Source: Candidatus Levybacteria bacterium RIFCSPLOWO2_12_FULL_37_14
Lineage (GTDB): Bacteria > Patescibacteriota > Microgenomatia > Levybacterales > UBA12049
DNA length: 33,050 bases
NCBI GenBank assembly: GCA_001782645.1
Contig: MFPH01000034.1
Span: 1-33,050, forward strand
Reading direction: 5' to 3'
Position 1 is the first letter of the stretch, and every line of letters begins with the position of its first letter. Below are positions 1 to 27,149 of this stretch, one piece after another. Both the position numbers and the translations under genes were made by a program. The notes under the pieces were generated by a model, which was not told the origin of the DNA, searched no databases, and saw only the letters and a list, made by a program, of their open reading frames with translations.

Positions 1-471
1 AGATTGGATGAACAGACGGGAATATTAACATATGTTAAGGCAATTGAATTATTAAGAAAAAAAATACCGGATTTTATATTTGAAATAATTGGCGATGGAA
101 AATTCAGGAAAAAAGCTGAGGAGGATTTCATAGTCTTAGGGTTTCAGAAAAACCCCGAAAAATATTTTCAGGATTATAATTTTGCTTTTGTATCCAGATA
201 TTTGTCTATAATGGAAGCAATGACTGCAAAAAGATTGGTATTTGCAGTTTATGATAATCCTCTTAAGGAGGATTATCTTAGGATGGCTCCTTTTTCAAAA
301 TATATTATAATTTTTAATTCTCCATTGGAATTAGTTTCGAAAATTTCTTTTTATATAGAAAATATAAAAGAAAAAGAAAAAATTGTGGAGGAAGCATATG
401 TTTGGGTTAATAAGCATACTTGGGAAAAAATGGTTAATATGTATTTAAAACTTTGGAGCTCAAACCTTTGA
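1..471 (+). CDS. Glycosyltransferase family 4 (GT-B, Glycos_transf_1-like), C-terminal part; the 5' end lies outside the window
   Basis: The frame is open from the window edge. The sequence ...IIGDGKFRKKAEE...FVSRYLSIMEAMTAKRLVF... resembles the C-terminal Rossmann half of GT4 enzymes. The track start at 4 is a TTG and is probably not the true start. Confidence 0.6.
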   Translation, partial: RLDEQTGILTYVKAIELLRKKIPDFIFEIIGDGKFRKKAEEDFIVLGFQKNPEKYFQDYNFAFVSRYLSIMEAMTAKRLVFAVYDNPLKEDYLRMAPFSKYIIIFNSPLELVSKISFYIENIKEKEKIVEEAYVWVNKHTWEKMVNMYLKLWSSNL

Positions 472-523
472 CTTGAATAGCTTCATTTGATACGATTGGA
501 ACTTATTAATAGAAACTTAGAAG

Positions 524-1306
524 ATGACCAAAACAGAAAAATACTTCAGAAAATATTTACAGATTGCCCCTCTTTGTGTTGCGCTTTGGAGGTCTGTTGA
601 GGCAAAACACTTGTCAAAAGTAAAATTGCCCCGTCCAATTTTAGACATAGGATGCGGGTGGGGAGAGTTTGCGGAAGCATTTGGAGTAAATATTGACATG
701 GGTATTGACATTGCTTCTAATGACCTGCGCGCTGCTGCGAAGGGGAAGATGTATAAAAATCTTACTCTTGCTGATGCTAGAAATTTACCATTTGCAGAGA
801 ATTCGTACGGATCTGTTTTTTCAATAAGCACATTCGAGCATATTACGGATACCCCAAGCCTTTTGAAAGAGATGCGTAGAGTTCTAAAGCCGGGGGGTAC
901 CCTGGCTATTACGATGGAAACGGATGATGTGGACAAAAATACTTTTTACCGTCCATTTTTAAGAAAAATTGGATTGACAAGATTAAGTAATTGGCTGACA
1001 TGGGCGTACAATACTAAATTTCACCGCAGAACATTACCTTCAAAAGAAAAATGGATAAAAGATATTAAAGCTGCCGGATTTAAAATAGTTTTAGCAAAAA
1101 ATATCATTTCGCCTTTAATTACAAAACTCTACGATATTTTTATTCCCACAGCATTGCCCTCTCAGTTTTTTAGACCATTTATCGGAAGGAGAAAAGTATT
1201 TAGGCCAAAATTTATGGAGGATTTGCTGGTAAAAATATTTTTAAAATACATTGAAAAAGAAGAAAAAATCGGTACTAATCTCTTTATCGTCGCAACAAAA
1301 ATATAG
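524..1306 (+). CDS. Class I SAM-dependent methyltransferase
   Basis: Motif I is ILDIGCGWGEF. An acidic loop and the post-motif LKPGGTLAI follow. Length is 260 aa and the start is ATG. Confidence 0.8.
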   Translation: MTKTEKYFRKYLQIAPLCVALWRSVEAKHLSKVKLPRPILDIGCGWGEFAEAFGVNIDMGIDIASNDLRAAAKGKMYKNLTLADARNLPFAENSYGSVFSISTFEHITDTPSLLKEMRRVLKPGGTLAITMETDDVDKNTFYRPFLRKIGLTRLSNWLTWAYNTKFHRRTLPSKEKWIKDIKAAGFKIVLAKNIISPLITKLYDIFIPTALPSQFFRPFIGRRKVFRPKFMEDLLVKIFLKYIEKEEKIGTNLFIVATKI

Positions 1307-1320
1307 TCAAAAAAATAAAT

Positions 1321-2226
1321 ATGAAAAAAATAAACGAAGTTGGATTAAGCGCATGTCCGGTTTGCCTGTCTAAGAATACGTATGAATTATATCCTGCCAA
1401 CGTAGATCTAAAAAAAATAATGTTTACGTATGAATTTACTCCGCAATCTCAAAAGACATTCCGTGTGGCTCGTTGCCGTAAGTGTACTCATGCATTCTGT
1501 TCTCCATTGCCCATGAATATGTATAAAAATTACGAAGATGTAATTGATAAGGAATATCTTCGTCATTCGCAAACTCGAAGATTATCTTCGCAATCGGTAT
1601 TAGATATTATCCGTAACTATGCTTCTGGGGAAAAAATGTTTGATATAGGCTGCGCTACGGGAGATTTTTTATCAGTAGCAAAAAGTTTCGGATATTCCGC
1701 TGAAGGACTTGAATTGTCTCGCTGGTCTGCAGAAATCGCTCGTAAAAAAGACATAACAGTTTACATGGACAGACTAAAAGTACTTGCTCAGAAATTTCCA
1801 GCGAGATATGACATTGTTACGATGTGGGGAGTTATTGAGCATTTTCAATTTCCTCGAGATGAAATGCTTTGTATCAATAGACTTCTTAAACCAGGAGGAT
1901 TATTGGTGATTTGGACAGGAAATATTGATGGAATAATGAGTCGCATTCTGGGTAGGCGCTGGTGGTATTGGCAAGGTCAGCATATTCAATATTTTACCAG
2001 TAGAAGTCTTAATAGCTTAGCTTCTTTGTTTGATTTTGAACATCTTATTACAAAACGTTATCCTATCGCTGCTACGTATGAACAAGTGAACAATTCTTTA
2101 AAAAGATATAAATTCCATAAATACCTGATGCCCTTAATCAAGCTTCTCTTCCTAATAAAGCCCATATGGTATCTCCGTTTGCCAGGGGAAATGTTGTGGC
2201 TAGGCCGTAAAGCGTTTGATAAGTAA
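1321..2226 (+). CDS. SAM-dependent methyltransferase with an N-terminal Cys4 zinc-ribbon
   Basis: The N-terminus carries CPVC...CRKC (four Cys). Motif I MFDIGCATGDF and LKPGGLLVIW follow. Length is 301 aa. Confidence 0.75.
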   Translation: MKKINEVGLSACPVCLSKNTYELYPANVDLKKIMFTYEFTPQSQKTFRVARCRKCTHAFCSPLPMNMYKNYEDVIDKEYLRHSQTRRLSSQSVLDIIRNYASGEKMFDIGCATGDFLSVAKSFGYSAEGLELSRWSAEIARKKDITVYMDRLKVLAQKFPARYDIVTMWGVIEHFQFPRDEMLCINRLLKPGGLLVIWTGNIDGIMSRILGRRWWYWQGQHIQYFTSRSLNSLASLFDFEHLITKRYPIAATYEQVNNSLKRYKFHKYLMPLIKLLFLIKPIWYLRLPGEMLWLGRKAFDK

Positions 2227-3945
2227 AATGTAGATAAGTACAATTATTAAAATAGAAAAGATTGCGATGCTTATAGTTTTGGCAATTTTATACGGCAAAA
2301 TGTCTTCGTATTTAAGTTCCAAATATTGTATTCCGCTAGGAAGATTTGCATAAATTAACCCTCTTTTTCCAGGGTAAACAAATATGTCATTAAAATTGCT
2401 TTTGAGTTTCCATCCGGGGTAATACAGCGTGTTTTCTTTTATGACAATTGGCGTTTGTGCATTGACAATATAATTATGCTGAGTTGATTTTCTTTTTATT
2501 TCCCTAACCGTTCCTTTTCCTTGAATAATTTCTAAATGATCGTTTGGGATTTTAGAAAACCAAAAGTTATTTATGTCCGCCCACCTATTATTTAAAAAAT
2601 AGGCCGTTGTACCTTCTGTTACTGTGCTAATCCAAACGTTCTTCCTAAGTGTATAGTCATTAATTTCCGTAATTAACCTTCGATGTCCCCAGTTTAAGAT
2701 TGTATACCCGATTGTAATTACAATAAGCAAGTAAATAAATATTTTTTTTCTCTGGGTATCAGAAAAAGAAATCGCCAAATATCCCGCAAGTACGGATGTA
2801 GATAGGGCTATAGGTAGCAACAATCGGTGACTTTGCAACATTGAAAGAGAAGGAAATTGAAACCAAATTCTCTTTGAATATGGCGACATAAAGAACAGTA
2901 TTAAAAAGAATATTAATAACCAAAATAGATAGGATGGATTTATTTTTTTTGATATATAATTTTTTTTTAGTAAAAATATTGCAAATACGACAACGAATAC
3001 TTGAGTATATCCGATAATCGGGGCAAATTCTCCGTTTGGTCCCTGAAAGAGAAAACCATATCTCCAAGGTGAGTAGAATATTTTGGAAAATGTATCCTGA
3101 AAAATTATTCCTCCGGGATTAGGAAATGTATACGCAGAAAATAAAATATAAGATACCCATGAGTAAATGGCTCCTATGATTCCTATGGACATGAAGACTA
3201 TCGTAATGAAAACACTCTTTAAACCCTTTTTAATATTTATCATCGACAAGACAAATAGACTGGCTATTCCAGTAAATATGCCTGCTATCATAGGATGCGC
3301 AAGAAATAATAGCTGCGACATCAATGCAATTAGCGCTAAATATGTAAATTTTTTCTTTTTTATATATTTTGTAATAAAATAGAAAAGTAACGGCACTAGC
3401 GTAAAAATAGTAGATTCGCCTAAAGTTGCTCTAAAGTGAACATCGATTAGGTGATAAGGATTGAAAATATAAAAGATAGCGGATGTAAATGCGGCAAGTT
3501 TGTTTCCAGTTAATTCTTTTATCCATAAATACATAAATATTCCGGACAAATATAAAGTTAAACCAAGATAAAGTTTCATACTGCTTATAAAGCTGATTCC
3601 TATAAAGTGAAATAAAGAGATAATATAGTAGGGAAGAGAGTAATTAAAAATAAAAAGTGGATTTCCGTAGGTCGCATTAAGTTCTGCTGCCCAAGACGGC
3701 ATTATAATTCCTTCCTTAAGTGAATCGTAAAAGGACATTATTCTATAAATGTGAATATTGAAATCTCCGGACTCATAATCACCATTTCTAAATATGCTTA
3801 TAATTGGCAGTATCGAGATTAGTATTAGTAGAAAGAATAGGTTGATTTTTTTCTTTGGGAAAATGAATTTATAGAACAATAAGCCGCCCAATAATGCTAA
3901 CGAGGACATAATGTTGATAAAGACCATTCTATATGGATCCAGCAT
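2200..3945 (-). CDS. YfhO-like polytopic membrane glycosyltransferase (GT-C-like)
   Basis: The protein has many TM segments. An acidic first loop reads RNGDYESGDFNIHIYR...MPSWAAELNATYGNPLF. The C-terminal soluble part carries YYPGWK...YANLPSGIQYLELKYE, as in YfhO-family proteins. I place the start at the ATG at 3945 (MLDPYRM...). The track's 55 extra codons would run into the divergent gene at 3983. Confidence 0.6.
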   Translation of the reverse strand: MLDPYRMVFINIMSSLALLGGLLFYKFIFPKKKINLFFLLILISILPIISIFRNGDYESGDFNIHIYRIMSFYDSLKEGIIMPSWAAELNATYGNPLFIFNYSLPYYIISLFHFIGISFISSMKLYLGLTLYLSGIFMYLWIKELTGNKLAAFTSAIFYIFNPYHLIDVHFRATLGESTIFTLVPLLFYFITKYIKKKKFTYLALIALMSQLLFLAHPMIAGIFTGIASLFVLSMINIKKGLKSVFITIVFMSIGIIGAIYSWVSYILFSAYTFPNPGGIIFQDTFSKIFYSPWRYGFLFQGPNGEFAPIIGYTQVFVVVFAIFLLKKNYISKKINPSYLFWLLIFFLILFFMSPYSKRIWFQFPSLSMLQSHRLLLPIALSTSVLAGYLAISFSDTQRKKIFIYLLIVITIGYTILNWGHRRLITEINDYTLRKNVWISTVTEGTTAYFLNNRWADINNFWFSKIPNDHLEIIQGKGTVREIKRKSTQHNYIVNAQTPIVIKENTLYYPGWKLKSNFNDIFVYPGKRGLIYANLPSGIQYLELKYEDILPYKIAKTISIAIFSILIIVLIYILLIKRFTA

Positions 3946-3947
3946 GA

Positions 3948-3956
3948 TGATATAAT
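3948..3956 (+). promoter_or_regulatory. Candidate extended -10 element (TGATATAAT) for the long plus-strand glycosylation operon
   Basis: A TGnTATAAT match lies in the 37-nt divergent intergenic region, 27 nt upstream of the ATG at 3983. No convincing -35 is present. Confidence 0.3.
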
Positions 3957-3982
3957 ATAATCTACTCAAGAAAAGAACAAGT

Positions 3983-6565
3983 ATGAAGGTGTCTTTTGTT
4001 GCAACAGTCTTTAATGAGGAAAAAACAATTGGGGATTTTCTAAAGTCTATTTTTTGGCAATCACGAATTCCTGATGAAATTATTATTGTCGATGGGACGA
4101 GCAGCGACAAAACGGTCGCTAAAATTAAAAATGCAATATTAAAAATTAAAAATTACAATGTAAAATTTAAAATTCTGATAAAGAAAGGGAATAGGGCGGT
4201 TGGGAGGAATGAGGCAATTAAGCAGGCGAGTAATGAAATTATAGTTTGTTCTGATGCCGGGTGCATTCTTGATAAGAATTGGGTAAAAAATATTATCGTT
4301 CCCTTCAATGATTTAAGAGTTGATGTTGTTGCCGGATATTATAAGGGAAGGCCAAAAACGATTTTCCAAAAATGTCTGATTCCTTATGTTTTGGTGATGG
4401 AAGACAAACTTAATTCCTTGGAATTCTTACCGGCTTCAAGATCAATGGCTTTTAGAAAATCTATTTGGGAAAAAGTTAAAGGATTTGATGAAGCATATTC
4501 TCATAATGAAGATTATGTTTTTGCTCACAAACTCAAAGAGATTGGAGCGCATATTTTTTTTGAAAAAAAAGCTATTGTAAGTTGGATTCCAAGAAATACT
4601 TTTAGAAGTGCGTTTAAAATGTTTTTCCGTTTTGCATTTGGAGATAGCGAAAGCGGCATTTTTAGAGATAAGGCAATTTTAGTATTCGTTCGGTATTTTT
4701 TTAGTTTATATCTTTTGTGGTTAGCTTCTGTAGAAAAATCACTAGTTCTCTGGGTTGGTATTGTTTTAGGATTATTTATTTATATTTTCTGGTCAATAAA
4801 AAAGAATTATAAATACATTAATAATAAGAAAGCATTTGTTGTCTTACCTCTCTTGCAAGTTGTTTCTGACTTAGCCGTTTTAACAGGGACAAGTTTTGGC
4901 ATAATTAAATCTATCTTAAAAATTAATTATAAAAGGGTTTTAAAAAACAATTTAGTGTTAATAATTTTATTAATAATTTATGTTTTGACAATGCTGTCAG
5001 TGATCGCGTCGGGAATTCCAAATCAAACACATCCGTTTCCATATCATATGGATGAGTGGCATCAGCTATCCGCAGTAAGAAATGTGTTTAAGTTTGGTTC
5101 GCCCAATTTGGCAGGTTCTGCAAATGGAACAATGTTTCATTTTTTTGTTTCAGGAATACTCCTTATTCCTTTTTATATAACAAAAGTTATAAATCCCTTT
5201 GTCATAAAATCTTCAGTAGATTCCCTTTTGGATCAGGAAAGATTATTTATTGTGCTAAGGCTTACCACGCTTTTTTTTGGAATTCTGACTTTAAGTATCT
5301 TGTCAAAAATCGCAAAGCTTTTAAAATTAAACTCATCTTTAATAGTTATTCTATTCCTTTTCACGCCTGTTTGGTTAGTTTTAAGTAATTTTTTTAAATA
5401 TGATATAGCTTTGACTTTTTGGATTACATTATCATTCTATTATTTTTTAAAATATGCTTTTTTTCCAAAATTTAGGAATTTTCTTTTTGCCTGCTTTTTT
5501 TCCGGAATAGCGTTCTCTGTAAAAGTAAGCGCCTTACCTTTATTGCCAATTATTTTAATATCATATTTTCTCTTTGCTCCGGAATTTAATAAAAATTACC
5601 GTTATTTATTTATTGGAATTTTAATATTTTTATTCAATTCCGTATTTCTGGGCTTGCCGGATATAATTTTTGCTGGAAAAAGTATGTATCTATATCTTTA
5701 TGAAAATATAATCGGATCATCTAAAATTATAGGAAATTATAATTTGGGAGGTTCACTTTTAAATTTAACTTTATTGCATAAGTTGCCGGCCATTTTTGGG
5801 CACATCTCATACGCTCTTAATATTTTTGCATTTTTTTATGTATCAGTCTTGACATTTGTAGATCTAAGAAATAAGAAATATCATGATTTCAAAATTAAGC
5901 TATTCATAATGATATCTTTTATTATTTTTTCCTTAAGCTTTATTCCGCTTGGAATAACAATAAGCGCGAATAGGTTAGTAATTTTGCTTCCCCTAGCGGT
6001 TTTAATTGTTGGAACAGCTTTCAAAAATTTAATTAATTTATTAAAAAATAGACCTGTTTTAAAAAACGTATTTATAATACTCTTAGTTATTATTTCGTCG
6101 ATTCAAGTATTTGAATCCTACTTGTGGATTAATCTTAAAATTGCCCCCTCACCCCAGCAGCTTTCATCCAGGTGGATAATGAAAAATGTTCAAAAAAATT
6201 CGAATATAGGACTAGAAAATATACCAATTTATCAATTTGAACCGGATTTTATTCTGAAAGAATTCTACAATAAACAATATAATTCAAACACTAGAACGAA
6301 ATATAATTATTTCATCATAAATAAAGATACAAAAAATTTACCTAAATATATTGTAATTTCAAATATTAATTACGAGAAAAAATATTTAAAAACATCTATA
6401 AAAAACGAATTAGTAAATAGAATTAGTAAAGAAGGGTATAGGGAAATTGCATATTTTCCATTAACATTGCCCGCATATCGGTATTTTGACGGTTATTTTT
6501 ATTATCCATATGTAGGTTTATTTGCATACCCTGATGGAATATCAATATTTGAAAAAAAGAAATGA
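3983..6565 (+). CDS. Fusion protein: N-terminal GT2 (GT-A) glycosyltransferase plus C-terminal polytopic GT-C-like (ArnT/PMT_2-like) domain
   Basis: Residues 1-~225 read VSFVATVFNEEKTI...IIIVDGTSSDKT...CSDAGC...NEDYVF, which is the GT2 pattern. About 14 or more TM segments follow, with the acidic loop YHMDEWHQ and the mid-protein motif FSVKVSALPL typical of ArnT/PMT-type GT-C enzymes. It is a single uninterrupted 860-codon frame. Confidence 0.75.
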   Translation: MKVSFVATVFNEEKTIGDFLKSIFWQSRIPDEIIIVDGTSSDKTVAKIKNAILKIKNYNVKFKILIKKGNRAVGRNEAIKQASNEIIVCSDAGCILDKNWVKNIIVPFNDLRVDVVAGYYKGRPKTIFQKCLIPYVLVMEDKLNSLEFLPASRSMAFRKSIWEKVKGFDEAYSHNEDYVFAHKLKEIGAHIFFEKKAIVSWIPRNTFRSAFKMFFRFAFGDSESGIFRDKAILVFVRYFFSLYLLWLASVEKSLVLWVGIVLGLFIYIFWSIKKNYKYINNKKAFVVLPLLQVVSDLAVLTGTSFGIIKSILKINYKRVLKNNLVLIILLIIYVLTMLSVIASGIPNQTHPFPYHMDEWHQLSAVRNVFKFGSPNLAGSANGTMFHFFVSGILLIPFYITKVINPFVIKSSVDSLLDQERLFIVLRLTTLFFGILTLSILSKIAKLLKLNSSLIVILFLFTPVWLVLSNFFKYDIALTFWITLSFYYFLKYAFFPKFRNFLFACFFSGIAFSVKVSALPLLPIILISYFLFAPEFNKNYRYLFIGILIFLFNSVFLGLPDIIFAGKSMYLYLYENIIGSSKIIGNYNLGGSLLNLTLLHKLPAIFGHISYALNIFAFFYVSVLTFVDLRNKKYHDFKIKLFIMISFIIFSLSFIPLGITISANRLVILLPLAVLIVGTAFKNLINLLKNRPVLKNVFIILLVIISSIQVFESYLWINLKIAPSPQQLSSRWIMKNVQKNSNIGLENIPIYQFEPDFILKEFYNKQYNSNTRTKYNYFIINKDTKNLPKYIVISNINYEKKYLKTSIKNELVNRISKEGYREIAYFPLTLPAYRYFDGYFYYPYVGLFAYPDGISIFEKKK

Positions 6566-6834
6566 ACTTGCTTTTAAAAATAGCCAAATCTAATTTTGGG
6601 AAAATTGTTCTGAAATCTCTGTCGATTTCGACTCTTATAATATTCGTTCTTATGTTTTATTTTAAAAAAATAAGAACGCTTTTCCCTATTCCTGAAATAA
6701 ATAGCGATAAGCTGATAGGATTTGCGCAATATTATGGGTATCCGTTCTATTTTGATACTATTTTTTTCTTCTTCTTAATTTTTCTTCCTGTTCTAGTTTT
6801 TATAGTTGTTTATCTGCTGAGTAAAAACAAATGA
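6562..6834 (+). CDS. Small two-TM membrane protein, unknown function
   Basis: The 90-aa product has two hydrophobic helices. ATGA overlaps occur at both ends (6562-6565 and 6831-6834), which suggests translational coupling. I recognise no motif. Confidence 0.5.
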   Translation: MNLLLKIAKSNFGKIVLKSLSISTLIIFVLMFYFKKIRTLFPIPEINSDKLIGFAQYYGYPFYFDTIFFFFLIFLPVLVFIVVYLLSKNK

Positions 6835-8840: not shown

Positions 8841-8874
8841 TAAATTTTCCGTGTGTTATAATTTGAGGTAATTA

Positions 8875-10092: not shown

Positions 10093-10096
10093 ATAA

Positions 10097-11008: not shown

Positions 11009-11050
11009 CTGTCTGAAATCCACGTTTTTTGCGTTATAATACTAAGGAAT

Positions 11051-15882: not shown

Positions 15883-15885
15883 TTC

Positions 15886-17742
15886 ATGGATTTTAGTAAT
15901 TATATTACAGTATTTAATAATGTCCCGAAGAACACGTCATATTTAATAGGTGATTTTATTGGATTTGAATTTCATATAGATAAGGTTGTGGGCATTGTCA
16001 TTAATATCTTAATCGCCCTGATTTTTATAGCAATTTACTATTTGATTGGAAGAAAGATAAGGATATTTTTATTTAAAAATATTGATTGTAAAAATTTTCA
16101 TAACTTTGTTAACGTTGCTTTAGGATATATTTTTGTAAACTCAGCATTAGCGATTCTCGGTTTACTTTCCCTGCTTTATCCTACGGTTTTGTGGTTATAT
16201 ATCATTACAATTCTTTTTATTTCAATTTATCCATACCGTACGCTAAAAAATAGTATGGTTGAATTGCGTAGTTCTGTCAGCGAAACAAAAAGAATTTTAA
16301 ATGAAAATAAATGGGTTTTCTTTGGAGTGATTTTATTCGTTTTTATTGCGTTTCTGCGTTTGATTCCTCCTGAAATTGGAGAGGATGCAATAGGATATCA
16401 CACAAGCGATCCATATTTATTCCTAAAGAATCACACAACAGTGCTTAAGCATTCCTACGTGGCAATGCCAGCTCCTCATCTTGGCGAAATGACATATACC
16501 ATATCGGAATTTATAGGATTTAAGGATTCAACAAGGTATATTCATTTTTCATTTTATTTTCTAGTAGTGTTCCTTTTGATGCTTGTTAGTCCGTATGGCG
16601 CGCTACTTTTCGTAACTGCTCCGGTTATTATTCAAATATCCTCAAAAGCAAATGTAGATTTTCAGTGGATTCTCTGCTGGTTACTCTCAATATTCCTTGT
16701 TACTCAAAGCAAACAAAGAGGAATAAAGAACATGATATTGATAGGAATATTATTCGGCGGGGTACTGGCTTCGAAATTATGGACAATTGCCTTTTCCCCT
16801 CTTTTTATCTTGTATTTATTAATTATTTATAGGAAATTAAATTTAAAGGCTAAGCTAAGAATGATATTTGCATTTTCTCTGTCTGCTTTTCTAATCAACC
16901 TTGTTTGGCTTTGGCGCTCTTTTATCATAAGCGGTAATCCTTTATATCCTGTGTTCTCAACAATCACATCTTTGGATGGAGGAAGCGGGGCGCTGGGCGC
17001 TGGTAATATTATTGGATTTAACAACCTGATGTTTCGCATGCAAAATATAAGCGTTTTAAGTCCCTTATTTTATTTTGGAATGTTTATTGTTATTCTCCAT
17101 TGGCGTTGCGCATTTAAACTTTTACGCAGGCCTAACTTATCTTTATTTTTTGTTTTTCTTGCTGCCGAATACATTTTCGTAAAATATCATTTTGGAAGGT
17201 ATCTATTGGGCTTGTATTCTTTGGCGGTACTGATTGTATCGATAGGATTAAAAGATTTAATTAAAAAATATAATGTATATAAAATTGTTTTTGTTATGAT
17301 TTATGGTATTTTATTTATTTATTATTTTACAAATACGTTATTAGTTCTTCCTTATGGTTTTGGATGGGCAGACAACAATAGGTATTTAACGAGAATTCTA
17401 TTTAGAGATAATGCAAGTTATTATGATTTTGATCATTTGTTTAGCAAGTGGATTTCAAGTAATGATAAAGTCGCGACATATGGAATATCAGGATATTACT
17501 ATGCGGACTTTGACTATATAGATATATATTATATTTTCGGAAAAAACAATAAATCGTTTGATTTACTTATGGAAAAAAACGTAACAAAATTACTCATAAA
17601 AGGAGGGGACATTTTTTGGTTTTGCGAATCATTAAGTTTGCAAAACTGTTCTTCAAACAAAGTTAAATTGCTGGTCAGTTATCCTGAGGGTATAGGAAAA
17701 TACAATCTTTACAGTATATCAGAATCTACCAGATTGCCATAA
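15886..17742 (+). CDS. Polytopic GT-C-like membrane protein (paralog of 20521..22101)
   Basis: Loop motifs are PPEIGEDAIGYH...LKNH, MP..HLGEMTYT, IHFSF, LASKLWTIAF and GNPLYPVF. They are collinear with the same motifs in the 20521 gene product. Confidence 0.6.
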   Translation: MDFSNYITVFNNVPKNTSYLIGDFIGFEFHIDKVVGIVINILIALIFIAIYYLIGRKIRIFLFKNIDCKNFHNFVNVALGYIFVNSALAILGLLSLLYPTVLWLYIITILFISIYPYRTLKNSMVELRSSVSETKRILNENKWVFFGVILFVFIAFLRLIPPEIGEDAIGYHTSDPYLFLKNHTTVLKHSYVAMPAPHLGEMTYTISEFIGFKDSTRYIHFSFYFLVVFLLMLVSPYGALLFVTAPVIIQISSKANVDFQWILCWLLSIFLVTQSKQRGIKNMILIGILFGGVLASKLWTIAFSPLFILYLLIIYRKLNLKAKLRMIFAFSLSAFLINLVWLWRSFIISGNPLYPVFSTITSLDGGSGALGAGNIIGFNNLMFRMQNISVLSPLFYFGMFIVILHWRCAFKLLRRPNLSLFFVFLAAEYIFVKYHFGRYLLGLYSLAVLIVSIGLKDLIKKYNVYKIVFVMIYGILFIYYFTNTLLVLPYGFGWADNNRYLTRILFRDNASYYDFDHLFSKWISSNDKVATYGISGYYYADFDYIDIYYIFGKNNKSFDLLMEKNVTKLLIKGGDIFWFCESLSLQNCSSNKVKLLVSYPEGIGKYNLYSISESTRLP

Positions 17743-17774
17743 GGTAACGATTTTTATATAATAAATGAAAATTA

Positions 17775-19019
17775 ATGCACTTAATGAAACATTATAATTA
17801 CAAGTCTTTGGAAATTAAAAAATGTCGAGCATGTGACTCATCAGCGCTTGAAGATATTTTATCTTTGGGCACTCAATATTTATCCGACTTTACAATAGGT
17901 AATAAAAAGCCCGAGAAATATCCGCTAAGCATAATGCTTTGTAATGATTGCAGTTTATTGCAATTAAAACACAATGTTCCGCAGTCTTCATTGTACACGG
18001 AAAGATACGGATATAAATCAGGAATGAATCTCACTATGCGGAAAGAATTGAAGGAAATAGTTGATAAAACACTTAGTAAATTGAAACAAAAAGAAGATAT
18101 GACGGCGGTAGATATTGGAGCAAATGACGGAACGCTTTTAAGCAACTACTCAGATAAAGTTTTTAAAATTGGAATAGAGCCGATTAAAAAATTTGCTAAA
18201 GAGTGCGGATTAAAAGCAAATGTAATAATAAACGATTTTTTTAATTATAAATTGTATTTTAGTAAAGTTGGAAAAAGAAAAGCAGATATTATTACGATTA
18301 TATCGTGTTTCTATGATATGGAAAAACCCAATATTTTCTTGTCGGATGTTAAAAAAATAATGAATGATGATGGAATAATTACCATCCAGCAGAATTATTT
18401 AGCAAGTATGTTACGCAATAATGCTTTTGATAATATAGTGCATGAACATCTGGAATATTATTCACTGCTCTCATTGGAAAATCTACTTAAAAGACATCAG
18501 CTTGAAATATTTGATATTGAAGAAGATGGGATGAATGGTGGAAGTTTCAGGACTTATATATCCAATATCGGCAAAAGAAAAATATCAAAATCCGTTGTTA
18601 ATATGAGGATTAGGGAGAGAAAAATAAATCTTAAAAACAAAAAAATATATATGGATTTTGCGCAAAAAGTAGAAAAAAACAAAAATAAATTATCCAAACT
18701 AATTTTAAAATTGCTAAAAGAAAATAAAAAGATTTATATTTATGGCGCATCTACCAGGGGAAATACTTTATTGCAGTATTGCGGTTTAGACTGTAAATCA
18801 ATTAAAGCAGCTGTAGAAAGAAATTCAGAAAAGTGGGGTAAAAAAATTGCCTCGGTTGGTGTGCCAATAATTTCCGAAGAACAAGCAAGAATAGAAAAGC
18901 CTGATTATATGTTAGTTTTGCCTTGGTTTTTCAGGGAGGAATTTTTAAGACGAGAAAAAAAATATCTTCAAGACGGAGGACATTTTATTTTTCCCTTACC
19001 CAAATTAGAGGTTATCTAA
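17775..19019 (+). CDS. NDP-sugar C-methyltransferase-like enzyme (zinc-binding N-domain plus class I MTase plus C-methyltransferase C-domain; TylCIII-like family)
   Basis: The Zn domain reads CRACDS...LSLGTQYLSDF...YPLSIMLCNDCSLLQL. The SAM motif is AVDIGANDGTLL. A C-terminal Rossmann-like IYIYGASTRGNTLLQY follows. The start may instead be the second ATG at 17784. Confidence 0.7.
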   Translation: MHLMKHYNYKSLEIKKCRACDSSALEDILSLGTQYLSDFTIGNKKPEKYPLSIMLCNDCSLLQLKHNVPQSSLYTERYGYKSGMNLTMRKELKEIVDKTLSKLKQKEDMTAVDIGANDGTLLSNYSDKVFKIGIEPIKKFAKECGLKANVIINDFFNYKLYFSKVGKRKADIITIISCFYDMEKPNIFLSDVKKIMNDDGIITIQQNYLASMLRNNAFDNIVHEHLEYYSLLSLENLLKRHQLEIFDIEEDGMNGGSFRTYISNIGKRKISKSVVNMRIRERKINLKNKKIYMDFAQKVEKNKNKLSKLILKLLKENKKIYIYGASTRGNTLLQYCGLDCKSIKAAVERNSEKWGKKIASVGVPIISEEQARIEKPDYMLVLPWFFREEFLRREKKYLQDGGHFIFPLPKLEVI

Positions 19020-19722
19020 AATTATATTTTAATTTTAAGATTGTGATGAATGCTTCTTTTATTTCTGCAAAATTAAAATTAGATTTATTAATCTCTTTGT
19101 GGACAAAGTTAAATGGTATTTCTCCAAAAGATCCACCCTTTTTATATATTTTATAAATGATTTCTGATAACAGAATAAAACCCTTAGAATAAAATGAATC
19201 AAAATCGACTTTTTCTAGCGCTTCTCTTCTGTAGCACCTAAATCCATTTGTAAAATCAGTAATGGGAACTTTCAGCATAAATCTAATATAGGAATTAACA
19301 ATCCGACTAAATATTATTCTTTTTACATTCAATCCTTTGATTATTGATTCTTTCAAATATTTAGATGCTATAACAACGTCAAACATGTTGCATTTACTTA
19401 TCATAATGGGAATATATTTTGGGTCATGACATAAATCAGCATCCATTTCAATAAAAAATTCTATATTTTTATTTTTTAATCCTTCTTGAAATCCTCTTAG
19501 TACCGCCGATCCCCTTCCTCCCTTGTTCTTTCTTAAAATTAGCTTTATTCTCTTGTCGTAAGAAAAACGTTCATTTATCAACTCCGCGGATTTATCGGGC
19601 GAATTGTCATCGACAATTATTATCTTAGGTTCTGGAAAATATACTAATACACGCTCTATTGCCTTGATTATTGTTTCATGCGCATTGTAACAGGGAATAA
19701 TTATAGCTATGTTGTTGTGCAT
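19012..19722 (-). CDS. GT2 polyprenyl-phosphate hexose synthase (DPM1/Ppm1/GtrB-like)
   Basis: The sequence IAIIIPCYNAHETI...IIIVDDNSPDKSAE...RKNKGGRGSAVLRGF...EMDADLCHDPKYIP closely follows the dolichyl/polyprenyl-phosphate mannose synthase pattern. It is 236 aa with no C-terminal TM segment. Confidence 0.75.
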   Translation of the reverse strand: MHNNIAIIIPCYNAHETIIKAIERVLVYFPEPKIIIVDDNSPDKSAELINERFSYDKRIKLILRKNKGGRGSAVLRGFQEGLKNKNIEFFIEMDADLCHDPKYIPIMISKCNMFDVVIASKYLKESIIKGLNVKRIIFSRIVNSYIRFMLKVPITDFTNGFRCYRREALEKVDFDSFYSKGFILLSEIIYKIYKKGGSFGEIPFNFVHKEINKSNFNFAEIKEAFITILKLKYNFR

Positions 19723-19757
19723 ATTTTTTAATAGTATACTCTATTGGGGAGATAAAG

Positions 19758-20519
19758 ATGAAGATTTGCATATCGGCAATCGTTCTAGCAAAAAACGAAG
19801 AAAAAAATATAGCTGATTGTCTGAAAAATTTAAAATGGTGTGATGAGTCAATTGTCATTGACGATAATTCCACTGATGAAACTGTTAAAATTGCAGAAAA
19901 AAATAACGCAAAAGTTTACTCAAGGTCTTTAGATAATTTCTCAAATCAAAGAAATTTTGGGATCACAAAAGCAAGTGGAGAATGGATGCTATTTGTAGAT
20001 GCGGACGAAAGAGTTTCAGGCGCTCTTGCTTTTGAAATTTCAAACGTCCTATCAAGTTGGACAAATGAAATAGATAATGAATATAAAGGCTTTTATATTC
20101 CCCGTTTTGATGTCATTTGGGGAAAAGAATTAAGGTATGGAGATTCAGGAGTAAAATTGCTAAGGCTAGCAAAAAAAAATGCAGGGAAATGGGAGGGATT
20201 AGTCCATGAAAAATGGAAAATTAATGGAAAAATAGGTTCATTAAAAAACCGAATAATTCATTATCCGCATCAGACAATTTCAGAGTTTTTATCGGAAATT
20301 AATTTTTATACTGCATTGAGAGCAAAAGAGCTTTATTCAAGGAAAATAAAAGTTAATATATTATCAATAATTCTGTATCCTTCCTGCAAATTCGTTTTAA
20401 ATTATTTTTTAAAAAAAGGCTTGTTGGACGGAATCCCGGGGCTGATGCAGGCGCTCCTTATGTCATTTCATTCATTTTTGGTTAGAGGCAAATTGCGGTT
20501 GATGTGGAATAGTAAATGA
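19758..20519 (+). CDS. Glycosyltransferase family 2 (WaaE/KdtX-like short GT2)
   Basis: The sequence reads ISAIVLAKNEEKNIADCLKNLKWCDESIVIDDNSTDET...FVDADERV. A GGGGAG SD lies 6 nt upstream. Confidence 0.8.
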   Translation: MKICISAIVLAKNEEKNIADCLKNLKWCDESIVIDDNSTDETVKIAEKNNAKVYSRSLDNFSNQRNFGITKASGEWMLFVDADERVSGALAFEISNVLSSWTNEIDNEYKGFYIPRFDVIWGKELRYGDSGVKLLRLAKKNAGKWEGLVHEKWKINGKIGSLKNRIIHYPHQTISEFLSEINFYTALRAKELYSRKIKVNILSIILYPSCKFVLNYFLKKGLLDGIPGLMQALLMSFHSFLVRGKLRLMWNSK

Positions 20520-20520
20520 T

Positions 20521-22101
20521 ATGTTTTCTCTAGCCATCTTGATTGGTATTTACTCATATCTCATTTTTGAGCTTGGACTGGTAGGAATTTTATATAAAGA
20601 CCACATAGTTTTAGCAACATTTATCTTCGGATTATTTATTCTCTATTTTTATAAAAAAAAGATAAAAAGTAAATTGCCTCAGTATTCTAAAGTATTGAAG
20701 CAAATGCAGAAGATAAATGTTAAAAGTGCAAAACGCAATTGGTTGCCAATCGTTGCCTTTTCTATATTAGTTTTACAGGGAATTGTTAATCTTATTGGGG
20801 CATTGGGGCCGGAATTGGGATTCGATGCTCTTTGGTATCACTTGACGTTGCCTAAAATTTACCTACAAAATCACGCAATTTTCTATATTCCCGGAGGACT
20901 CTTATATTATTCAACAATGCCCAAGCTTACGGAAATGCTCTATACGGTCGGATTATCATTTGGGAGTGAAATTTTTGCAAAACTTATTCATTTTTCTTTC
21001 GGAATTTTAACTTTAATAGCGCTTTATAGGTTGTCCCGCAAGTTTTTATCAAAAACTTATTCCCTTCTGGCGCTTGTTCTTTTTTATTCCAATCTGATTG
21101 TTGGGTGGATATCAATATCTGCTTATATTGATTTAGCCAGAACTTTTTTTGAAATAATGGCACTGTGGGGATTTGTAAATTGGATTGAAAAAAAAGAAAA
21201 AAAATGGCTTATTATCTCGGCGATATTATTAGGCTTAGCAATATCAACCAAACTTTTGGCGTTGGGTAGTCTTTTAATCTTTGCTATCCTTATAGTAATT
21301 TTTACCCGCAAAATTAATAATATCTTAATTTATTGTTTTTGCGCTTTAATAATTCCGTTACCCTGGTTTATTTTTTCCTACATTTATACCGGTAATCCCG
21401 TATACCCATTTTTTACAAGTATTTATCCCGTAAAGTTTACTCTTGATTTAATTAATCCCTTGAGTCTTTCAGATCCCATTTCTTCTCTTTATGTAATATT
21501 CTTACCAATAACAATATTTATTTATAAAAAGCTTAAATTATCTTTCAAAATAATATCTCTATATTCTTTTCTTGCAATTATTGCGTGGTATCTGACTCCG
21601 CAGACAGGCGGAGGGAGGTTTATATTGCCTTATCTTCCAGCCTTTTCTTTAATGACATTAGTAATTATTAATATGATTAAACGAATAGCGCTACGCAGTA
21701 TTTTTATTGGGTTAATAGTTGCTTTAGCATTATTTTCTATAATTTATAGAGGTGCTGCGAATTCAAGACATATTCCTGTTATTTTGGGGCGAGAATCAAA
21801 ATCTCAATTCCTCACAAAGTATTTAAATTTTTCATTTGGGGATTTTTATGATACGGATGGTTATTTTGCCGATAAAATAAAAAAAGAAGACCAAGTTCTT
21901 CTCTATGGGTTTCATAATCTTTATTATATAAATTTTCCTTTTATAGATTCGTCCTATATAAAAAAAGGAGATGTGTTTAATTATATAGCTGTTCAGGGAA
22001 GCAATTTTCCTTATAGATTTAGATTTTGGAATTTAATTTATTATAATGATAAGACTAATATAAGATTATATTCTCTGGGAGGCTTGAGATGGACTTACTA
22101 A
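20521..22101 (+). CDS. Polytopic GT-C-like membrane protein (paralog of 15886..17742)
   Basis: Motifs are GPELGFDALWYH...LQNH, MPKLTEMLYT, IHFSF, AISTKLLALGS and GNPVYPFF, in the same order as in the 15886 gene product. Confidence 0.6.
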   Translation: MFSLAILIGIYSYLIFELGLVGILYKDHIVLATFIFGLFILYFYKKKIKSKLPQYSKVLKQMQKINVKSAKRNWLPIVAFSILVLQGIVNLIGALGPELGFDALWYHLTLPKIYLQNHAIFYIPGGLLYYSTMPKLTEMLYTVGLSFGSEIFAKLIHFSFGILTLIALYRLSRKFLSKTYSLLALVLFYSNLIVGWISISAYIDLARTFFEIMALWGFVNWIEKKEKKWLIISAILLGLAISTKLLALGSLLIFAILIVIFTRKINNILIYCFCALIIPLPWFIFSYIYTGNPVYPFFTSIYPVKFTLDLINPLSLSDPISSLYVIFLPITIFIYKKLKLSFKIISLYSFLAIIAWYLTPQTGGGRFILPYLPAFSLMTLVIINMIKRIALRSIFIGLIVALALFSIIYRGAANSRHIPVILGRESKSQFLTKYLNFSFGDFYDTDGYFADKIKKEDQVLLYGFHNLYYINFPFIDSSYIKKGDVFNYIAVQGSNFPYRFRFWNLIYYNDKTNIRLYSLGGLRWTY

Positions 22102-23243
22102 AAAAAATATTTATCTTTGTACTATTTCTTTTTCCCTTAGGCGAGATTGCGCGTATTGATTTTGGCAATGGTGTTGCATTAAAACCCTTAGATATTGGTG
22201 TGGGAGTTCTTGTCTCGTCGTGGTTGGCGTTCAAACTTTTCAATAAACAAAAAATTAGGCAAAAAAATATATACATTCCTGCATTGCTATTTTCCTTAAG
22301 CGGATTTTTTTCCTTAACTGTTGGCAATCTGCAATTATCGCTAAATGAGTTTTTAATTTCTTTTTTGTATTTACTTCGTTGGCTTGCTTATGCGGGTGTA
22401 TTTTTTGTAATTAGCGATTTCGACAATGACTTCAAGAAGAAAATTTCGAACACATTAATTATCGTTGGTTCTTTGGTTGTAGGATTAGGGTATTTACAAT
22501 ATTTTTTTTATTCAAACCTTAGAAATTTATATTATTTAGGATGGGATGAACATATGCACAGAATGTTTTCTGTGTTTCTTGATCCGAATTTTGCCGGAGC
22601 TTTTTTCGTACTATTTTTTTTATTTTTAATCGGAGTATTCTTGAAAAACAAAAATATTTCAGCAGGAATATTGTTAATGTTGACATTGGGAGCCGTATTT
22701 TTAACGTTTTCCAGAAGCGCTTTGATCATGTTAATTATAAGTTCAAGTTTATTATTTGTATTAATGCATAAAAAAATATGGATAGCAATATTGTTCGGAA
22801 TTACAATTCTGGTGATAACGATGTCATCAAGGTATTTCAGCATTGAAAATATTAATTTATTTAGAATTGTTTCGTCAGAAGCCCGCCTTGCAACTGCAAA
22901 AGAAGCGGTGAGAATAATATTGAGCCGGCCAATTTTTGGAGTAGGTTTTAATTCTTATAGGTATGCAAAATTGGACTATGGTTTGAGGAATAACAAGTTA
23001 TATCTAATAAGCCATGCGGATGCAGGAGTTGATAACAGTTTTTTATTTGTTGCAGCCACTACGGGAATTGTAGGGTTTATTTTATATTTATTTTTGTGGT
23101 TTAGGATATTTAAAATTGCCTCTATTTTGGCAATTGCTTCAATCGCAGGAATATTTATTAATAGCTTATTTATAAATAGCTTATTTTATCCTTTCATCAT
23201 GTTGTGGCTTTGGATAATTATTGCAATTAAGGTGAATAGATAA
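22089..23243 (+). CDS. O-antigen ligase / Wzy-type polymerase family membrane protein
   Basis: About 10-11 TM segments are present. LTFSRSALIML precedes a large loop, and SHADAGVDNSFLFVAATTGIVGF matches the His-containing Wzy_C-type motif. The start overlaps the upstream gene by 13 nt. Confidence 0.7.
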   Translation: MDLLKKIFIFVLFLFPLGEIARIDFGNGVALKPLDIGVGVLVSSWLAFKLFNKQKIRQKNIYIPALLFSLSGFFSLTVGNLQLSLNEFLISFLYLLRWLAYAGVFFVISDFDNDFKKKISNTLIIVGSLVVGLGYLQYFFYSNLRNLYYLGWDEHMHRMFSVFLDPNFAGAFFVLFFLFLIGVFLKNKNISAGILLMLTLGAVFLTFSRSALIMLIISSSLLFVLMHKKIWIAILFGITILVITMSSRYFSIENINLFRIVSSEARLATAKEAVRIILSRPIFGVGFNSYRYAKLDYGLRNNKLYLISHADAGVDNSFLFVAATTGIVGFILYLFLWFRIFKIASILAIASIAGIFINSLFINSLFYPFIMLWLWIIIAIKVNR

Positions 23244-23931: not shown

Positions 23932-23944
23932 AGTTTTTCTCCAG

Positions 23945-24015
23945 AGCCGATAGGTAGAATCGAACTACCATTTACGGTTTACGAAACCGCTGTTCTGCCA
24001 CTGAACTATATCGGC
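23945..24015 (-). tRNA. tRNA-Thr (anticodon CGU), CCA not encoded
   Basis: The minus strand reads GCCGATA TA GTTC AGTGGCA GAAC A GCGGT TTCGTAA ACCGT AAAT GGTAG TTCGATT CTACC TATCGGC T. All four stems pair (acceptor 7/7). The T-loop is the canonical TTCGATT. The anticodon loop T-T-CGT-A-A gives CGT. Confidence 0.9.

Positions 24016-27148: not shown

Positions 27149-27149
<1 letters not shown>
26742..27149 (-). CDS. atpC: F1 ATP synthase epsilon subunit
   Basis: The sequence LEIITPEKVIYKDEVDEVVVPTVNGEIAILPNH is followed by a C-terminal helical hairpin. A TAATG overlap links it to atpD. Confidence 0.9.

Follow-up and report, generated by a model that had tools for sequence, protein, structure and literature searches.

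Gene content of the glycan locus

The stretch of DNA analyzed here (the window; 33,050 nucleotides [nt]) comprises positions 1 to 33,050 of contig MFPH01000034.1 of Candidatus Levybacteria bacterium RIFCSPLOWO2_12_FULL_37_14, and its positions 1 to 23931 form a low-GC glycan locus with 15 glycosyltransferase domains. The open reading frame (ORF) map of the window was recomputed and showed 19 tightly packed genes between positions 4 and 23931, with coordinates matching those of a preliminary description of this DNA. That description had proposed a surface-glycan locus dominated by membrane-embedded glycosyltransferases of the GT-C type, fed by a DPM1-type GT2 enzyme and distinct from an ordinary Wzx/Wzy cluster. 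The proposal was supported by each line of evidence (domains, profiles, folds and synteny). Searches with profile hidden Markov models matched PMT_2, GT2, GT4 (Glycos_transf_1) and Wzy_C domains, and the inventory of Pfam and NCBIfam matches comprised five GT2 domains (the N termini of the proteins encoded at 3983-6565 and 12132-14351, plus 10097-11008, 19012-19722 on the minus strand and 19758-20519), two GT4 proteins (4-471 and 11051-12151) and three methyltransferases (524-1306, 1321-2226 and 17775-19019). The Wzx-like flippase, the Wzy/WaaL-like protein and the numbers of GT4 proteins and methyltransferases that had been predicted were thereby borne out.

Identification of GT-C enzymes of the PMT_2 and PTPS_related families

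Seven polytopic proteins or domains were detected, each with 8 to 13 membrane-spanning segments in a hydropathy scan. They are numbered here by their order along the window, and all but the third, an orphan protein encoded at 6831-8840, could be placed in the PMT_2 or PTPS_related families. GT-C no. 1 (2200-3945, minus strand) is a 581-amino-acid (aa) protein of the PTPS_related (PF10131) type (E = 7e-14) with about 10 transmembrane segments, and its orthologs aligned from residue 1 of the form starting at the ATG at position 3945. GT-C no. 2 (PMT_2; E = 1.9e-6) is the C-terminal part (aa ~320 to 860) of a fusion protein encoded on the plus strand at 3983-6565, which has 13 transmembrane segments in all and begins with a cytoplasmic GT2 domain (E = 1.9e-18) followed by four of these segments (aa 1 to ~315). 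The plus-strand gene at 12132-14351 encodes a second fusion, in which GT-C no. 4 (PMT_2; E = 5e-9) follows a cytoplasmic GT2 domain (E = 1.3e-22) of a rhamnosyltransferase/GlfT1-like kind, with weak NCBIfam matches to rhamnosyltransferase, HpsN and GlfT1. GT-C no. 5 (14344-15882, plus strand) is of the PMT_2 type (E = 2.5e-10) with the classical W-D-E motif in the first loop. GT-C no. 6 (15886-17742, plus strand) is a divergent PMT_2-like protein with extra N-terminal transmembrane segments; it had no Pfam match itself, and PMT_2 was matched by 26 of its 49 homologs (best E = 5.8e-10), some of which are named GT39 by NCBI. GT-C no. 7 (20521-22101, plus strand) is PMT_2/TMEM260-like (PMT_2; E = 8.6e-9) and is a paralog of no. 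6 (blastp, 26% over 407 aa, E = 4e-21; hhalign probability, 100%).

Relationships between these families were examined by comparing alignments of orthologs from related loci, profile against profile, with hhalign. A total of 28 related loci (designated by L numbers) were available, 27 of them found through the orphan protein and one (L029) through 15886-17742. Among the six PMT_2/PTPS_related families, 13 of the 15 pairs were linked with probabilities of 79 to 100% over 90 to 580 columns; the two weak pairs (52% and 5%) both involved the PTPS_related family, which was nonetheless linked to the GT-C domain of 3983-6565 with a probability of 92.8% over 339 columns. The Wzy_C protein was unrelated to the GT-C families at the profile level. 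Recent tandem duplication was rejected as the source of the high density of GT-C genes, as blastp recognized paralogy only between 15886-17742 and 20521-22101; the locus therefore carries seven old, distinct GT-C lineages and not recent copies.

An acidic first extracytoplasmic loop had been put forward as a hallmark of these proteins. Acidic residues of the first outer loop, whose placement outside the membrane was predicted from the hydropathy scan only, were invariant or nearly so within every one of the seven ortholog families. These residues included E58 (15/16) and D61 (16/16) in 2200-3945, D357/E358 within an M-D-E-W motif in 3983-6565 (16/16), D304 in 12132-14351 (8/8, as was Q305), D30/E31 in 14344-15882 (6/6), E166 and D167 in 15886-17742 (49/49, as was H172) and E98 and D102 in 20521-22101 (4/4). 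A further claim, that four of the six proteins share a mid-protein hydrophobic-(S/T/A/V)-K-hydrophobic motif, held only in part. As a bare pattern the motif occurred at chance frequency (0 to 4 observed versus 2 to 5 expected per protein). A mid-protein Lys did align in four of the five PMT_2-type proteins and was invariant within those four families (K514, 16/16; K186, 6/6; K297, 49/49; and K244, 4/4, in 3983-6565, 14344-15882, 15886-17742 and 20521-22101, respectively). What carries meaning is the invariant Lys at its aligned position and not the pattern.

Sequence searches against solved structures, performed with five GT-C proteins and with profiles A1 and A2, matched no GT-C structure; the matches obtained were to GT2 enzymes, through the fused N-terminal domains, or were noise (FtsX and myomaker). 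Fold and profile methods were needed for this reason. An AlphaFold2 model of 15886-17742 (predicted local distance difference test [pLDDT] score, 85.9; predicted template-modeling [pTM] score, 0.88) was compared with the Protein Data Bank (PDB) by the use of Foldseek and matched yeast and human STT3 (E = 6.6e-4), AftD, PglB, AftA, PIGU and PimE. Pfam matches, profile-profile links and this one model together upheld the assignment of six proteins or domains to the GT-C enzymes.

An orphan GT-C-like protein and a small partner gene

The protein encoded at 6831-8840 (GT-C no. 3; plus strand) belongs to an unannotated family. It had no Pfam or NCBIfam match, all of its 88 homologs were unannotated, and every named homolog came from Patescibacteria. 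The AlphaFold2 model (pLDDT, 87.6; pTM, 0.83) included a beta-rich C-terminal domain, predicted to be extracytoplasmic, with a weak similarity to carbohydrate-binding modules (AlgX; probability, 0.94 to 0.96; E = 0.3 to 0.8). The top 13 Foldseek matches in the PDB were all GT-C-fold proteins and represented seven families, namely, AglB (E = 6e-4), DPY19, EmbB, AftA (template-modeling [TM] score, 0.40), PIGU, ArnT and Pmt1/2. Both this model and that of 15886-17742 are bundles of helices, and for both, essentially all significant matches were GT-C proteins. Within the orphan family D43 was conserved in 46 of 47 sequences, and W50, R132, D177 and R319 were invariant. Classification of the orphan as a divergent PMT_2 protein was rejected at the profile level, with hhalign probabilities of ≤27% to any GT-C family of the window. 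The relationship to GT-C enzymes is therefore visible only in the modeled fold, and it is this GT-C-like fold that justifies the earlier count of "seven or more" GT-C-like transferases.

Directly upstream of the orphan gene lies a 90-aa ORF (6562-6834, plus strand) that encodes a small membrane protein with two transmembrane segments and overlaps both of its neighbors, the GT2-GT-C fusion gene and the orphan gene, by 4 nt each. Orthologs were recognized in related loci and share a highly conserved loop motif, PPEIxxxK(I/L)VGYxQYxGYPFYFD (alignment A3). Of 27 loci, 24 had an ortholog directly upstream of the orphan gene at E ≤ 1e-6 and a further one (L022) had it at E ≤ 1e-4, and the small gene stayed beside the orphan gene even where the GT2-GT-C fusion gene had moved within the locus. 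In L029 the small ORF and the orphan gene were absent together, and in L009 and L021 the small gene was fused in frame to a GT2 module with four transmembrane segments (GT2+4TM module). The family comprised 197 members, none of which had a Pfam domain. Conserved position and fusion thus make the small protein a candidate subunit of a GT2/orphan GT-C module. The idea that it represents a detached first-loop module of a GT-C enzyme was not accepted, as the hhalign match to the 15886-17742 family covered 24 columns with a probability of 31% and was suggestive only.

Putative donor synthase and flippase

The soluble GT2 protein encoded at 19012-19722 (minus strand) is, by sequence, a member of the DPM1-class polyprenyl-phosphate glycosyltransferase family, as had been predicted. 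Its best PDB match was dolichyl-phosphate mannose synthase (DPMS) of Pyrococcus furiosus (5mlz; E = 4e-20), over aa 4 to 215, which represent the whole catalytic domain; ArnC (E = 6e-11) and GtrB (E = 5e-5) came next. NCBIfam matches were to PpgS, ArnC, PgfS and AglJ, with those to PgfS and AglJ being weak. No transmembrane helix was detected in the hydropathy scan. Homologs of this DPMS/ArnC/GtrB-type gene were located directly after the orphan gene in seven related loci. The use of a polyprenyl-phosphate-linked donor by the GT-C proteins is supported only indirectly, by the presence of this GT2 gene in the locus and by its fusion to a 14344-type GT-C gene in L004/L005.

The GT2 domain of 3983-6565 was considered as another GtrB/DPMS-type donor synthase, and this was not supported: a profile of the GT2+4TM module (A4) favored generic GT2 enzymes (chondroitin synthase, 2e-21; TarS, 6.5e-15) over DPMS (1.3e-8), GtrB (8e-7) and ArnC. 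The module is a common one: at E ≤ 1e-3 the family comprised 13,597 representatives, and in many of these the module of ~320 aa makes up a protein by itself. Its NCBIfam matches (MftF, EpsD and PgaC) were all far below the cutoff. On this evidence a role as a second donor synthase is possible.

The flippase gene (8875-10092, plus strand) encodes a protein of the Wzx/MATE superfamily (Polysacc_synt_3, E = 6e-67; also Polysacc_synt and MatE) with 10 transmembrane segments and had homologs in 19 of the 27 related loci. In characterized three-component systems, such as that of Citrobacter, polyprenyl-phosphate-sugar donors are served by flippases of the MATE family (PMC11127046). As such a flippase can serve a lipid-linked donor and the locus encodes a candidate, the lack of a GtrA protein may leave no real gap.

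Fusions and fissions of glycosyltransferase domains

The two fusions of the window have counterparts in the relatives. The 3983-6565 protein was split in L013, L018 and L021 into a GT2 gene and a GT-C gene that flank the small ORF and the orphan gene. The ortholog of 14344-15882 was fused to a DPMS-like GT2 in L004/L005 (758 aa; two independent assemblies), and in L002 a 14344-type PMT_2 GT-C domain was fused to a GT4 homologous to 11051-12151 (883 aa). Topology was consistent in all of the fusions: the cytoplasmic domain either comes before the first transmembrane segment of the GT-C domain, or the segments lying between the two are even in number. These fusions tie given cytoplasmic transferases to given GT-C enzymes. 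Together with the ties of the small two-segment protein to the orphan GT-C protein and to the GT2+4TM module, they suggest that membrane complexes physically link the steps on the two sides of the membrane. The small gene and the weight given to fusions between GT-A and GT-C enzymes are additions to the preliminary description.

Other genes and boundaries of the locus

The left end of the locus lies outside the window, and the first gene (4-471, plus strand; Glycos_transf_1, E = 7.9e-6) is the C-terminal fragment of a GT4 (GT-B) protein truncated by the window start; its homologs were located upstream of methyltransferase genes or of a PTPS_related gene in 11 related loci. It is followed by two genes for S-adenosylmethionine-dependent methyltransferases. 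One is of the Methyltransf_11/25 type (524-1306, plus strand; E = 5e-19), with an 80% identical homolog in the equivalent place in L003, and the other is of the Methyltransf_23 type (1321-2226, plus strand; E = 1e-26), with orthologs (50 to 65% identity) in eight related loci and weaker, paralogous methyltransferase matches in seven more. A stand-alone cytoplasmic GT2 (10097-11008, plus strand; E = 7e-29) comes after the flippase, as it immediately does in L002 to L004, L006 and L007, and precedes the complete GT4 (GT-B) gene (11051-12151, plus strand; Glycos_transf_1, E = 1e-23, and Glyco_transf_4). The protein encoded at 17775-19019 (plus strand; E = 3e-45) has a Zn-binding domain, a methyltransferase domain and a C-terminal domain (Methyltransf_13/23/14), an architecture known from nucleoside diphosphate (NDP)-sugar C-methyltransferases. 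A homolog was present in 26 of 27 related loci, being a roughly 60 to 70% identical ortholog in about 19 and only a ~30% paralog in the rest.

Toward the right end, the order of 12132-14351, the stand-alone GT2 gene 19758-20519 (plus strand; E = 4.7e-17) and 20521-22101 was kept in L013, L015 and L018, with a Wzy_C gene next in L013 and L015; the L018 stretch stops within the 20521 homolog. The Wzy_C protein of the window (22089-23243, plus strand; E = 2.3e-16) belongs to the O-antigen ligase/polymerase/O-oligosaccharyltransferase superfamily, has 10 transmembrane segments in the hydropathy scan and has orthologs in L010, L013, L015 and L029. Its sequence is compatible with a polymerase, a ligase or an O-oligosaccharyltransferase. 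The last gene (23227-23931, minus strand; Glucodextran_B, E = 4.7e-17) encodes a membrane-anchored protein with one N-terminal transmembrane segment, two Ig-like/Glucodextran_B domains and a short Ser-rich linker. Its orthologs adjoin a Wzy_C or PMT_2 gene in L010 (54%) and L029 (70%), and acceptor function, chain-length control and wall binding are possible roles.

The locus had been described as spanning positions 1 to 23243. Its nature as a glycan locus was confirmed, and the right end is better placed at about 23931 to 24015, where a tRNA-Thr(CGU) gene (23944-24015, minus strand; ARAGORN; Rfam, 70 bits) forms the boundary. No other RNA was found in an Rfam scan of the window. The GC content was 0.25 to 0.36 inside the locus, rose from ~0.30 to ~0.40 to the right of the tRNA gene and was 0.39 to 0.44 in the pyrF/pyrE genes and the ATP synthase operon beyond. 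Insertion of a mobile island at the tRNA gene was considered and not supported: it is unlikely because the locus of L029 occupies the equivalent site beside the ATP synthase operon, and the low GC content is more likely inherent in the locus.

Some observations were made on the flanking genes. After pyrF/pyrE, the ORF at 25670-26734 (plus strand) had a weak Amidohydro_1 match to its N terminus only (E = 3.7e-6, with no single stretch passing) and may encode a divergent dihydroorotase. When read from the listed TTG codon, the ATP synthase beta ORF (27149-28642, minus strand) shares 86 nt with the gamma gene, and the true start is therefore probably further downstream. The ATP synthase delta (OSCP) ORF (30912-31268, minus strand) encodes only 118 aa and had a weak Pfam match (E = 0.005).

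Conservation across related loci and components absent from the window

A check of synteny showed that the locus is conserved but modular across the 28 related loci. The named homologs came from Candidatus Levybacteria/Levyibacteriota, Candidatus Roizmanbacteria, Candidatus Cerribacteria and unclassified Patescibacteria, and the host is a Levybacteria-type Patescibacterium. In L029, on a 446-kb contig, the locus lies beside the Ig-domain protein gene, a phosphoribosyltransferase gene and the ATP synthase operon, that is, at the matching chromosomal site. A core of 12132-14351, 14344-15882, 15886-17742, the C-methyltransferase, the DPMS-like GT2, 19758-20519, the Wzy_C protein and the Ig-domain protein was 63 to 74% identical between the two loci. 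The small ORF, the orphan gene and the 10097-type GT2 gene were jointly missing (L029 positions 3904 to 3906), and a nonorthologous PMT_2 gene on the minus strand (L029 positions 15750 to 17321) replaced 20521-22101. These losses and this replacement indicated that the locus swaps modules. Fourteen of the related loci (L007, L012 to L016, L019, L020, L022 to L024 and L026 to L028) come from records titled "uncultured Gammaproteobacteria bacterium" (TPA_asm metagenome-assembled genomes). They share gene order and 23 to 50% orphan identity with the window, as do the Levybacteria-labeled metagenome-assembled genomes, and have contigs of no more than 0.36 to 0.79 Mb; the titles look like placeholders or mislabels.

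The preliminary description had listed several components as absent. Among the window ORFs of ≥100 aa, none had a domain of a phosphoglycosyltransferase, Wzz or GtrA (PF04138), and the same was true of the 90-aa ORF; no window ORF had a Pfam or NCBIfam match to a sugar-nucleotide synthesis domain. Glycos_transf_4, Bac_transf and Wzz were likewise found neither in the window nor in the Pfam-annotated genes of L002 to L004 and L029. The priming enzyme and Wzz may be encoded elsewhere in the genome. The listed absences thus stood, with the qualification that sugar-nucleotide tailoring is not wholly absent from the window, given the C-methyltransferase architecture of 17775-19019. In relatives an NDP-sugar cassette lies within the locus (L002, 3969-5200 and 15440-20143; L003, 1-1806 and 14122-18819; L004, 1-1646 and 17734-22001) and encodes epimerase/dehydratases, an FdtA-like isomerase, a UDP-GlcNAc 2-epimerase-type protein (Epimerase_2), an RmlD-like reductase, a second C-methyltransferase and a split transketolase. 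The absence of NDP-sugar genes from the window is a local feature, and the gene content of the cassette hints at a C-branched deoxysugar in the glycan.

Proposed pathway and alternative explanations

The explanation that we favor, with a probability of roughly 0.55, is that the locus encodes a hybrid lipid-carrier pathway by which a Levybacteria-type Patescibacterium makes a surface glycoconjugate. Polyprenyl-phosphate sugars would feed a series of extracytoplasmic GT-C transferases. From the families, folds, conserved catalytic-type residues, synteny and fusions observed, we infer the following steps. Cytoplasmic GT2 and GT4 enzymes, free or fused, would build a short lipid-linked primer that includes methylated or C-methyl-branched sugars, with the priming enzyme presumably supplied by another part of the genome. 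The soluble DPMS-type GT2 (19012-19722) would load polyprenyl phosphate with a sugar, and the GT2+4TM module of 3983-6565 may do likewise. The Wzx/MATE protein would flip the primer, the polyprenyl-phosphate-sugar donor or both. Outside the membrane, the seven anciently diverged GT-C enzymes would draw on the lipid-phosphate donor to attach sugars, each at a different position, and the Wzy_C protein would either polymerize the product or ligate it to the final acceptor.

Several observations weigh against this pathway. No gene for an initiating phosphoglycosyltransferase or for polyprenyl-phosphate recycling was detected in the window or within ~10 kb around the orphan gene in three Pfam-annotated relatives. 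For the seven GT-C enzymes there is only one clear polyprenyl-phosphate-sugar synthase. Neither of the two window fusions has a GT2 domain with a specific likeness to DPMS/GtrB, and that of 12132-14351 resembles elongating rhamnosyl or galactofuranosyl transferases. The GT-C domain of the latter protein lacks the aligned Lys, with E447 in its place in 8 of 8 sequences, and this domain could act as a scaffold and not in catalysis. Foldseek matched GT-C structures for both models, with TM scores of only 0.37 to 0.40 and E values of about 6e-4. Enzymes of the PMT_2 family also glycosylate proteins and lipids, so that a polysaccharide acceptor does not follow from the family.

One alternative is protein O-glycosylation, which we regard as an unlikely explanation. 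The PMT_2-type GT-C enzymes would move sugars onto Ser/Thr residues of proteins that are secreted or anchored in the membrane (S-layer proteins, pilins or the neighboring Ig-domain protein, for example), after the models of actinobacterial Pmt/Ppm1, the streptococcal Pgf system and GtrB/PgtC2. They would transfer single sugars or extend short chains, and the Wzy_C protein would be a PglL/PilO-type O-oligosaccharyltransferase acting en bloc on a Wzx-flipped oligosaccharide. The Wzy_C domain is common to the PglL/PilO O-oligosaccharyltransferases, and such a role also fits with the five PMT_2-type GT-C proteins (15886-17742 through its homologs), one of which matches the TMEM260-like O-mannosyltransferase family as well, with the weak PgfS and AglJ matches of 19012-19722, with the best Foldseek matches of the 15886-17742 model, which were to oligosaccharyltransferases, and with the conserved membrane-anchored Ig-like protein at the edge of the locus. 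Streptococci are also known to glycosylate proteins with GtrB and GT-C enzymes (PMC11092751). However, the MIR domain that is typical of eukaryotic PMTs was found by Pfam in no window protein, no WWDYG-type oligosaccharyltransferase motif was noticed, although no systematic search for it was made, and the Ig-domain protein lacks a long disordered region rich in Ser/Thr, its Ser-rich linker being only short. The beta-rich C-terminal domain of the orphan, weakly similar to carbohydrate-binding modules, is of a kind that occurs in polysaccharide-acting GT-C enzymes, and a set of seven GT-C enzymes, five GT2s, two GT4s and a flippase exceeds any described protein O-glycosylation system.

About as improbable, in our estimate, is an ordinary Wzx/Wzy repeat-unit polysaccharide decorated by several side-chain systems of the Gtr/CsbB-YfhO type, with the GT-C enzymes as accessory decorators that serve antigenic or phage-receptor diversification. 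Both Wzx and Wzy_C are present, as are a DPMS-type GT2, a flippase and GT-C enzymes, which fit the three-component logic of such systems, and low GC with modular, variable content (the losses and the GT-C replacement in L029, and the NDP-sugar cassette in relatives only) is typical of diversifying surface-antigen loci. Yet there is one clear donor synthase only, and neither Wzz nor a priming enzyme is encoded in the window; the seven GT-C domains equal the cytoplasmic glycosyltransferase domains in number, unlike in described decoration systems, which have one GT-C enzyme per module; and the GT-C lineages are ancient and not recent duplicates. Moreover, four GT-C genes or domains stay together as an ordered block in L029, at 63 to 74% identity, and mostly in the other relatives, which argues for a core role of the GT-C enzymes. 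Very improbable is a third explanation, that some PMT_2-like domains are noncatalytic and serve the fused cytoplasmic transferases as anchors, lipid-carrier-binding scaffolds or flippase-associated factors (compare archaeal Agl23), so that fewer GT-C enzymes would be active. The Glu that replaces, in 12132-14351, the invariant Lys of four paralogous families would be accounted for, as would a weak match of 20521-22101 to the Agl23 "flippase activity-associated" family and the occurrence of cytoplasmic GT2/GT4-GT-C fusions in three different combinations. Against it, each of the seven families, that of 12132-14351 included (D304, 8/8), has acidic residues in the first loop that vary little or not at all, and the stand-alone proteins 2200-3945, 14344-15882, 15886-17742, 20521-22101 and 6831-8840 have no fused partner to anchor.

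A stronger form of the serial GT-C pathway can be envisaged, which we put forward tentatively and consider less probable than not by a good measure. In this form, the main surface glycan of Levybacteria-type Patescibacteria would be assembled almost wholly outside the cell by a lineage-specific line of membrane complexes, in which fusions of GT-A or GT-B with GT-C enzymes and the new two-segment subunit couple donor synthesis, flipping and transfer. The orphan would found a new GT-C family in CAZy, and the 6562-6834 protein would be its obligate partner and contribute a function otherwise lacking, for example handing over or flipping the donor.

Patescibacteria are ultrasmall, mostly uncultured episymbionts, for which the cell surface is the interface with the host. 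To our knowledge, almost nothing is known of their envelope glycans. The longest contigs of the relatives are only 0.45 to 0.79 Mb, and in such a group some 24 kb of DNA encoding 15 glycosyltransferase domains is a very large investment, which suggests that the surface glycan has a central role. For GT-C enzymology, the locus adds an unannotated family with a GT-C fold and a conserved small partner, and the natural fusions and fissions offer ready hypotheses on which donor synthase serves which transferase. If the serial GT-C pathway is true, glycan assembly of a mycobacterial, extracytoplasmic style would extend to a distant lineage with minimal genomes.

Comparison with known systems

Every component family of the locus, and the three-component logic, is already known. 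Searches of the literature on Patescibacteria with GT-C, GT39, GT83 or PMT_2 and on GT2-GT-C fusions returned nothing specific; undescribed in the literature searched are the presence of seven GT-C domains in about 20 kb, the repeated GT-A/GT-B-GT-C fusions, the orphan family with its small partner and the Patescibacterial host.

With the three-component systems (GtrA/GtrB/GtrC; CsbB/GtcA/YfhO; GacI/J/K/L; and ORF15/ORF14/ORF12-GT136 of Citrobacter) the locus shares a DPMS/GtrB-type GT2, a candidate flippase, which as a MATE-type donor flippase has precedent (PMC11127046), and GT-C enzymes. The small membrane partner of a GT2 recalls GacJ of the Gac system. In contrast to these systems, there is no GtrA-family protein, one synthase stands beside seven GT-C enzymes in place of one GT-C enzyme per module, the synthase has no transmembrane helices and is fused directly to a GT-C enzyme in L004/L005, and the small protein, which falls in no Pfam family, has its main ties to the orphan GT-C protein. 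Wzx/Wzy loci for O antigens and capsules resemble the locus in having Wzx, a Wzy_C protein, cytoplasmic GT2 and GT4 enzymes, a GC content below that of flanking housekeeping genes and a gene content that is modular between relatives; they differ in that the window contains no initiating phosphoglycosyltransferase, Wzz or NDP-sugar synthesis genes and as many GT-C as cytoplasmic glycosyltransferase domains. GT-C-dependent protein O-glycosylation (actinobacterial Pmt/Ppm1; PgfS/PgfM1/PgfM2 of Streptococcus mutans; streptococcal GtrB/PgtC2) likewise combines PMT_2-family GT-C enzymes with a DPM1/PgfS-like GT2 and places the catalytic loop, by prediction, outside the membrane. PMT/GT39 enzymes likewise carry a DE motif in loop 1 of their membrane domain, as do the PMT_2 domains here (W-D-E in 14344-15882 and M-D-E-W in 3983-6565), but the locus has far more enzymes than the described systems, no MIR domain and no obvious Ser/Thr-rich acceptor alongside. 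A likeness to GT-C paralog families of Leptospira was seen in weak NCBIfam matches of 14344-15882, 15886-17742 and 20521-22101 (E = 5e-3 to 4e-6) to the models of two as yet uncharacterized families, LA_3751/LA_3752, a putative glycosyltransferase family, and LIC_10190, annotated only as a membrane protein; with 16 to 26 bits versus cutoffs of 100 to 200 bits, the window proteins are not members of these families. The locus thus fits none of the canonical Gtr modules, complete Wzx/Wzy loci, eukaryote-type PMTs or Emb/Aft systems.

The closest functional analogy may be the assembly of mycobacterial lipomannan and lipoarabinomannan, in which one polyprenyl-phosphate-mannose synthase feeds many GT-C enzymes, and the favored pathway also bears a likeness to multiplied Gtr-type systems. 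No Pfam match to Arabinose_trans, GT87 or PimE-type families and none to genes of the decaprenylphosphoryl arabinose (DPA) pathway (UbiA-type decaprenylphosphoryl-phosphoribose [DPPR] synthase and DprE1/E2) was found in the window. Mycobacterial GT-C genes are scattered over a 4.4-Mb genome; here, seven occur in about 20 kb, in a lineage of Patescibacteria in which the contigs of relatives reach only 0.45 to 0.79 Mb, and GT-A/GT-C fusions and a Wzx/Wzy_C pair are present. The likeness to lipomannan/lipoarabinomannan and arabinogalactan assembly (Ppm1 or DPA feeding PimE, MptA/B/C, AftA-D and EmbA-C) lies in the combination of many GT-C enzymes with one DPM1-type synthase, in the proposed elongation outside the membrane of a lipid-linked primer made inside and in the C-terminal, extracytoplasmic beta-rich domains of some GT-C enzymes. 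AftA, AftD and EmbB were among the Foldseek matches of the two models, a likeness at the level of the fold only.

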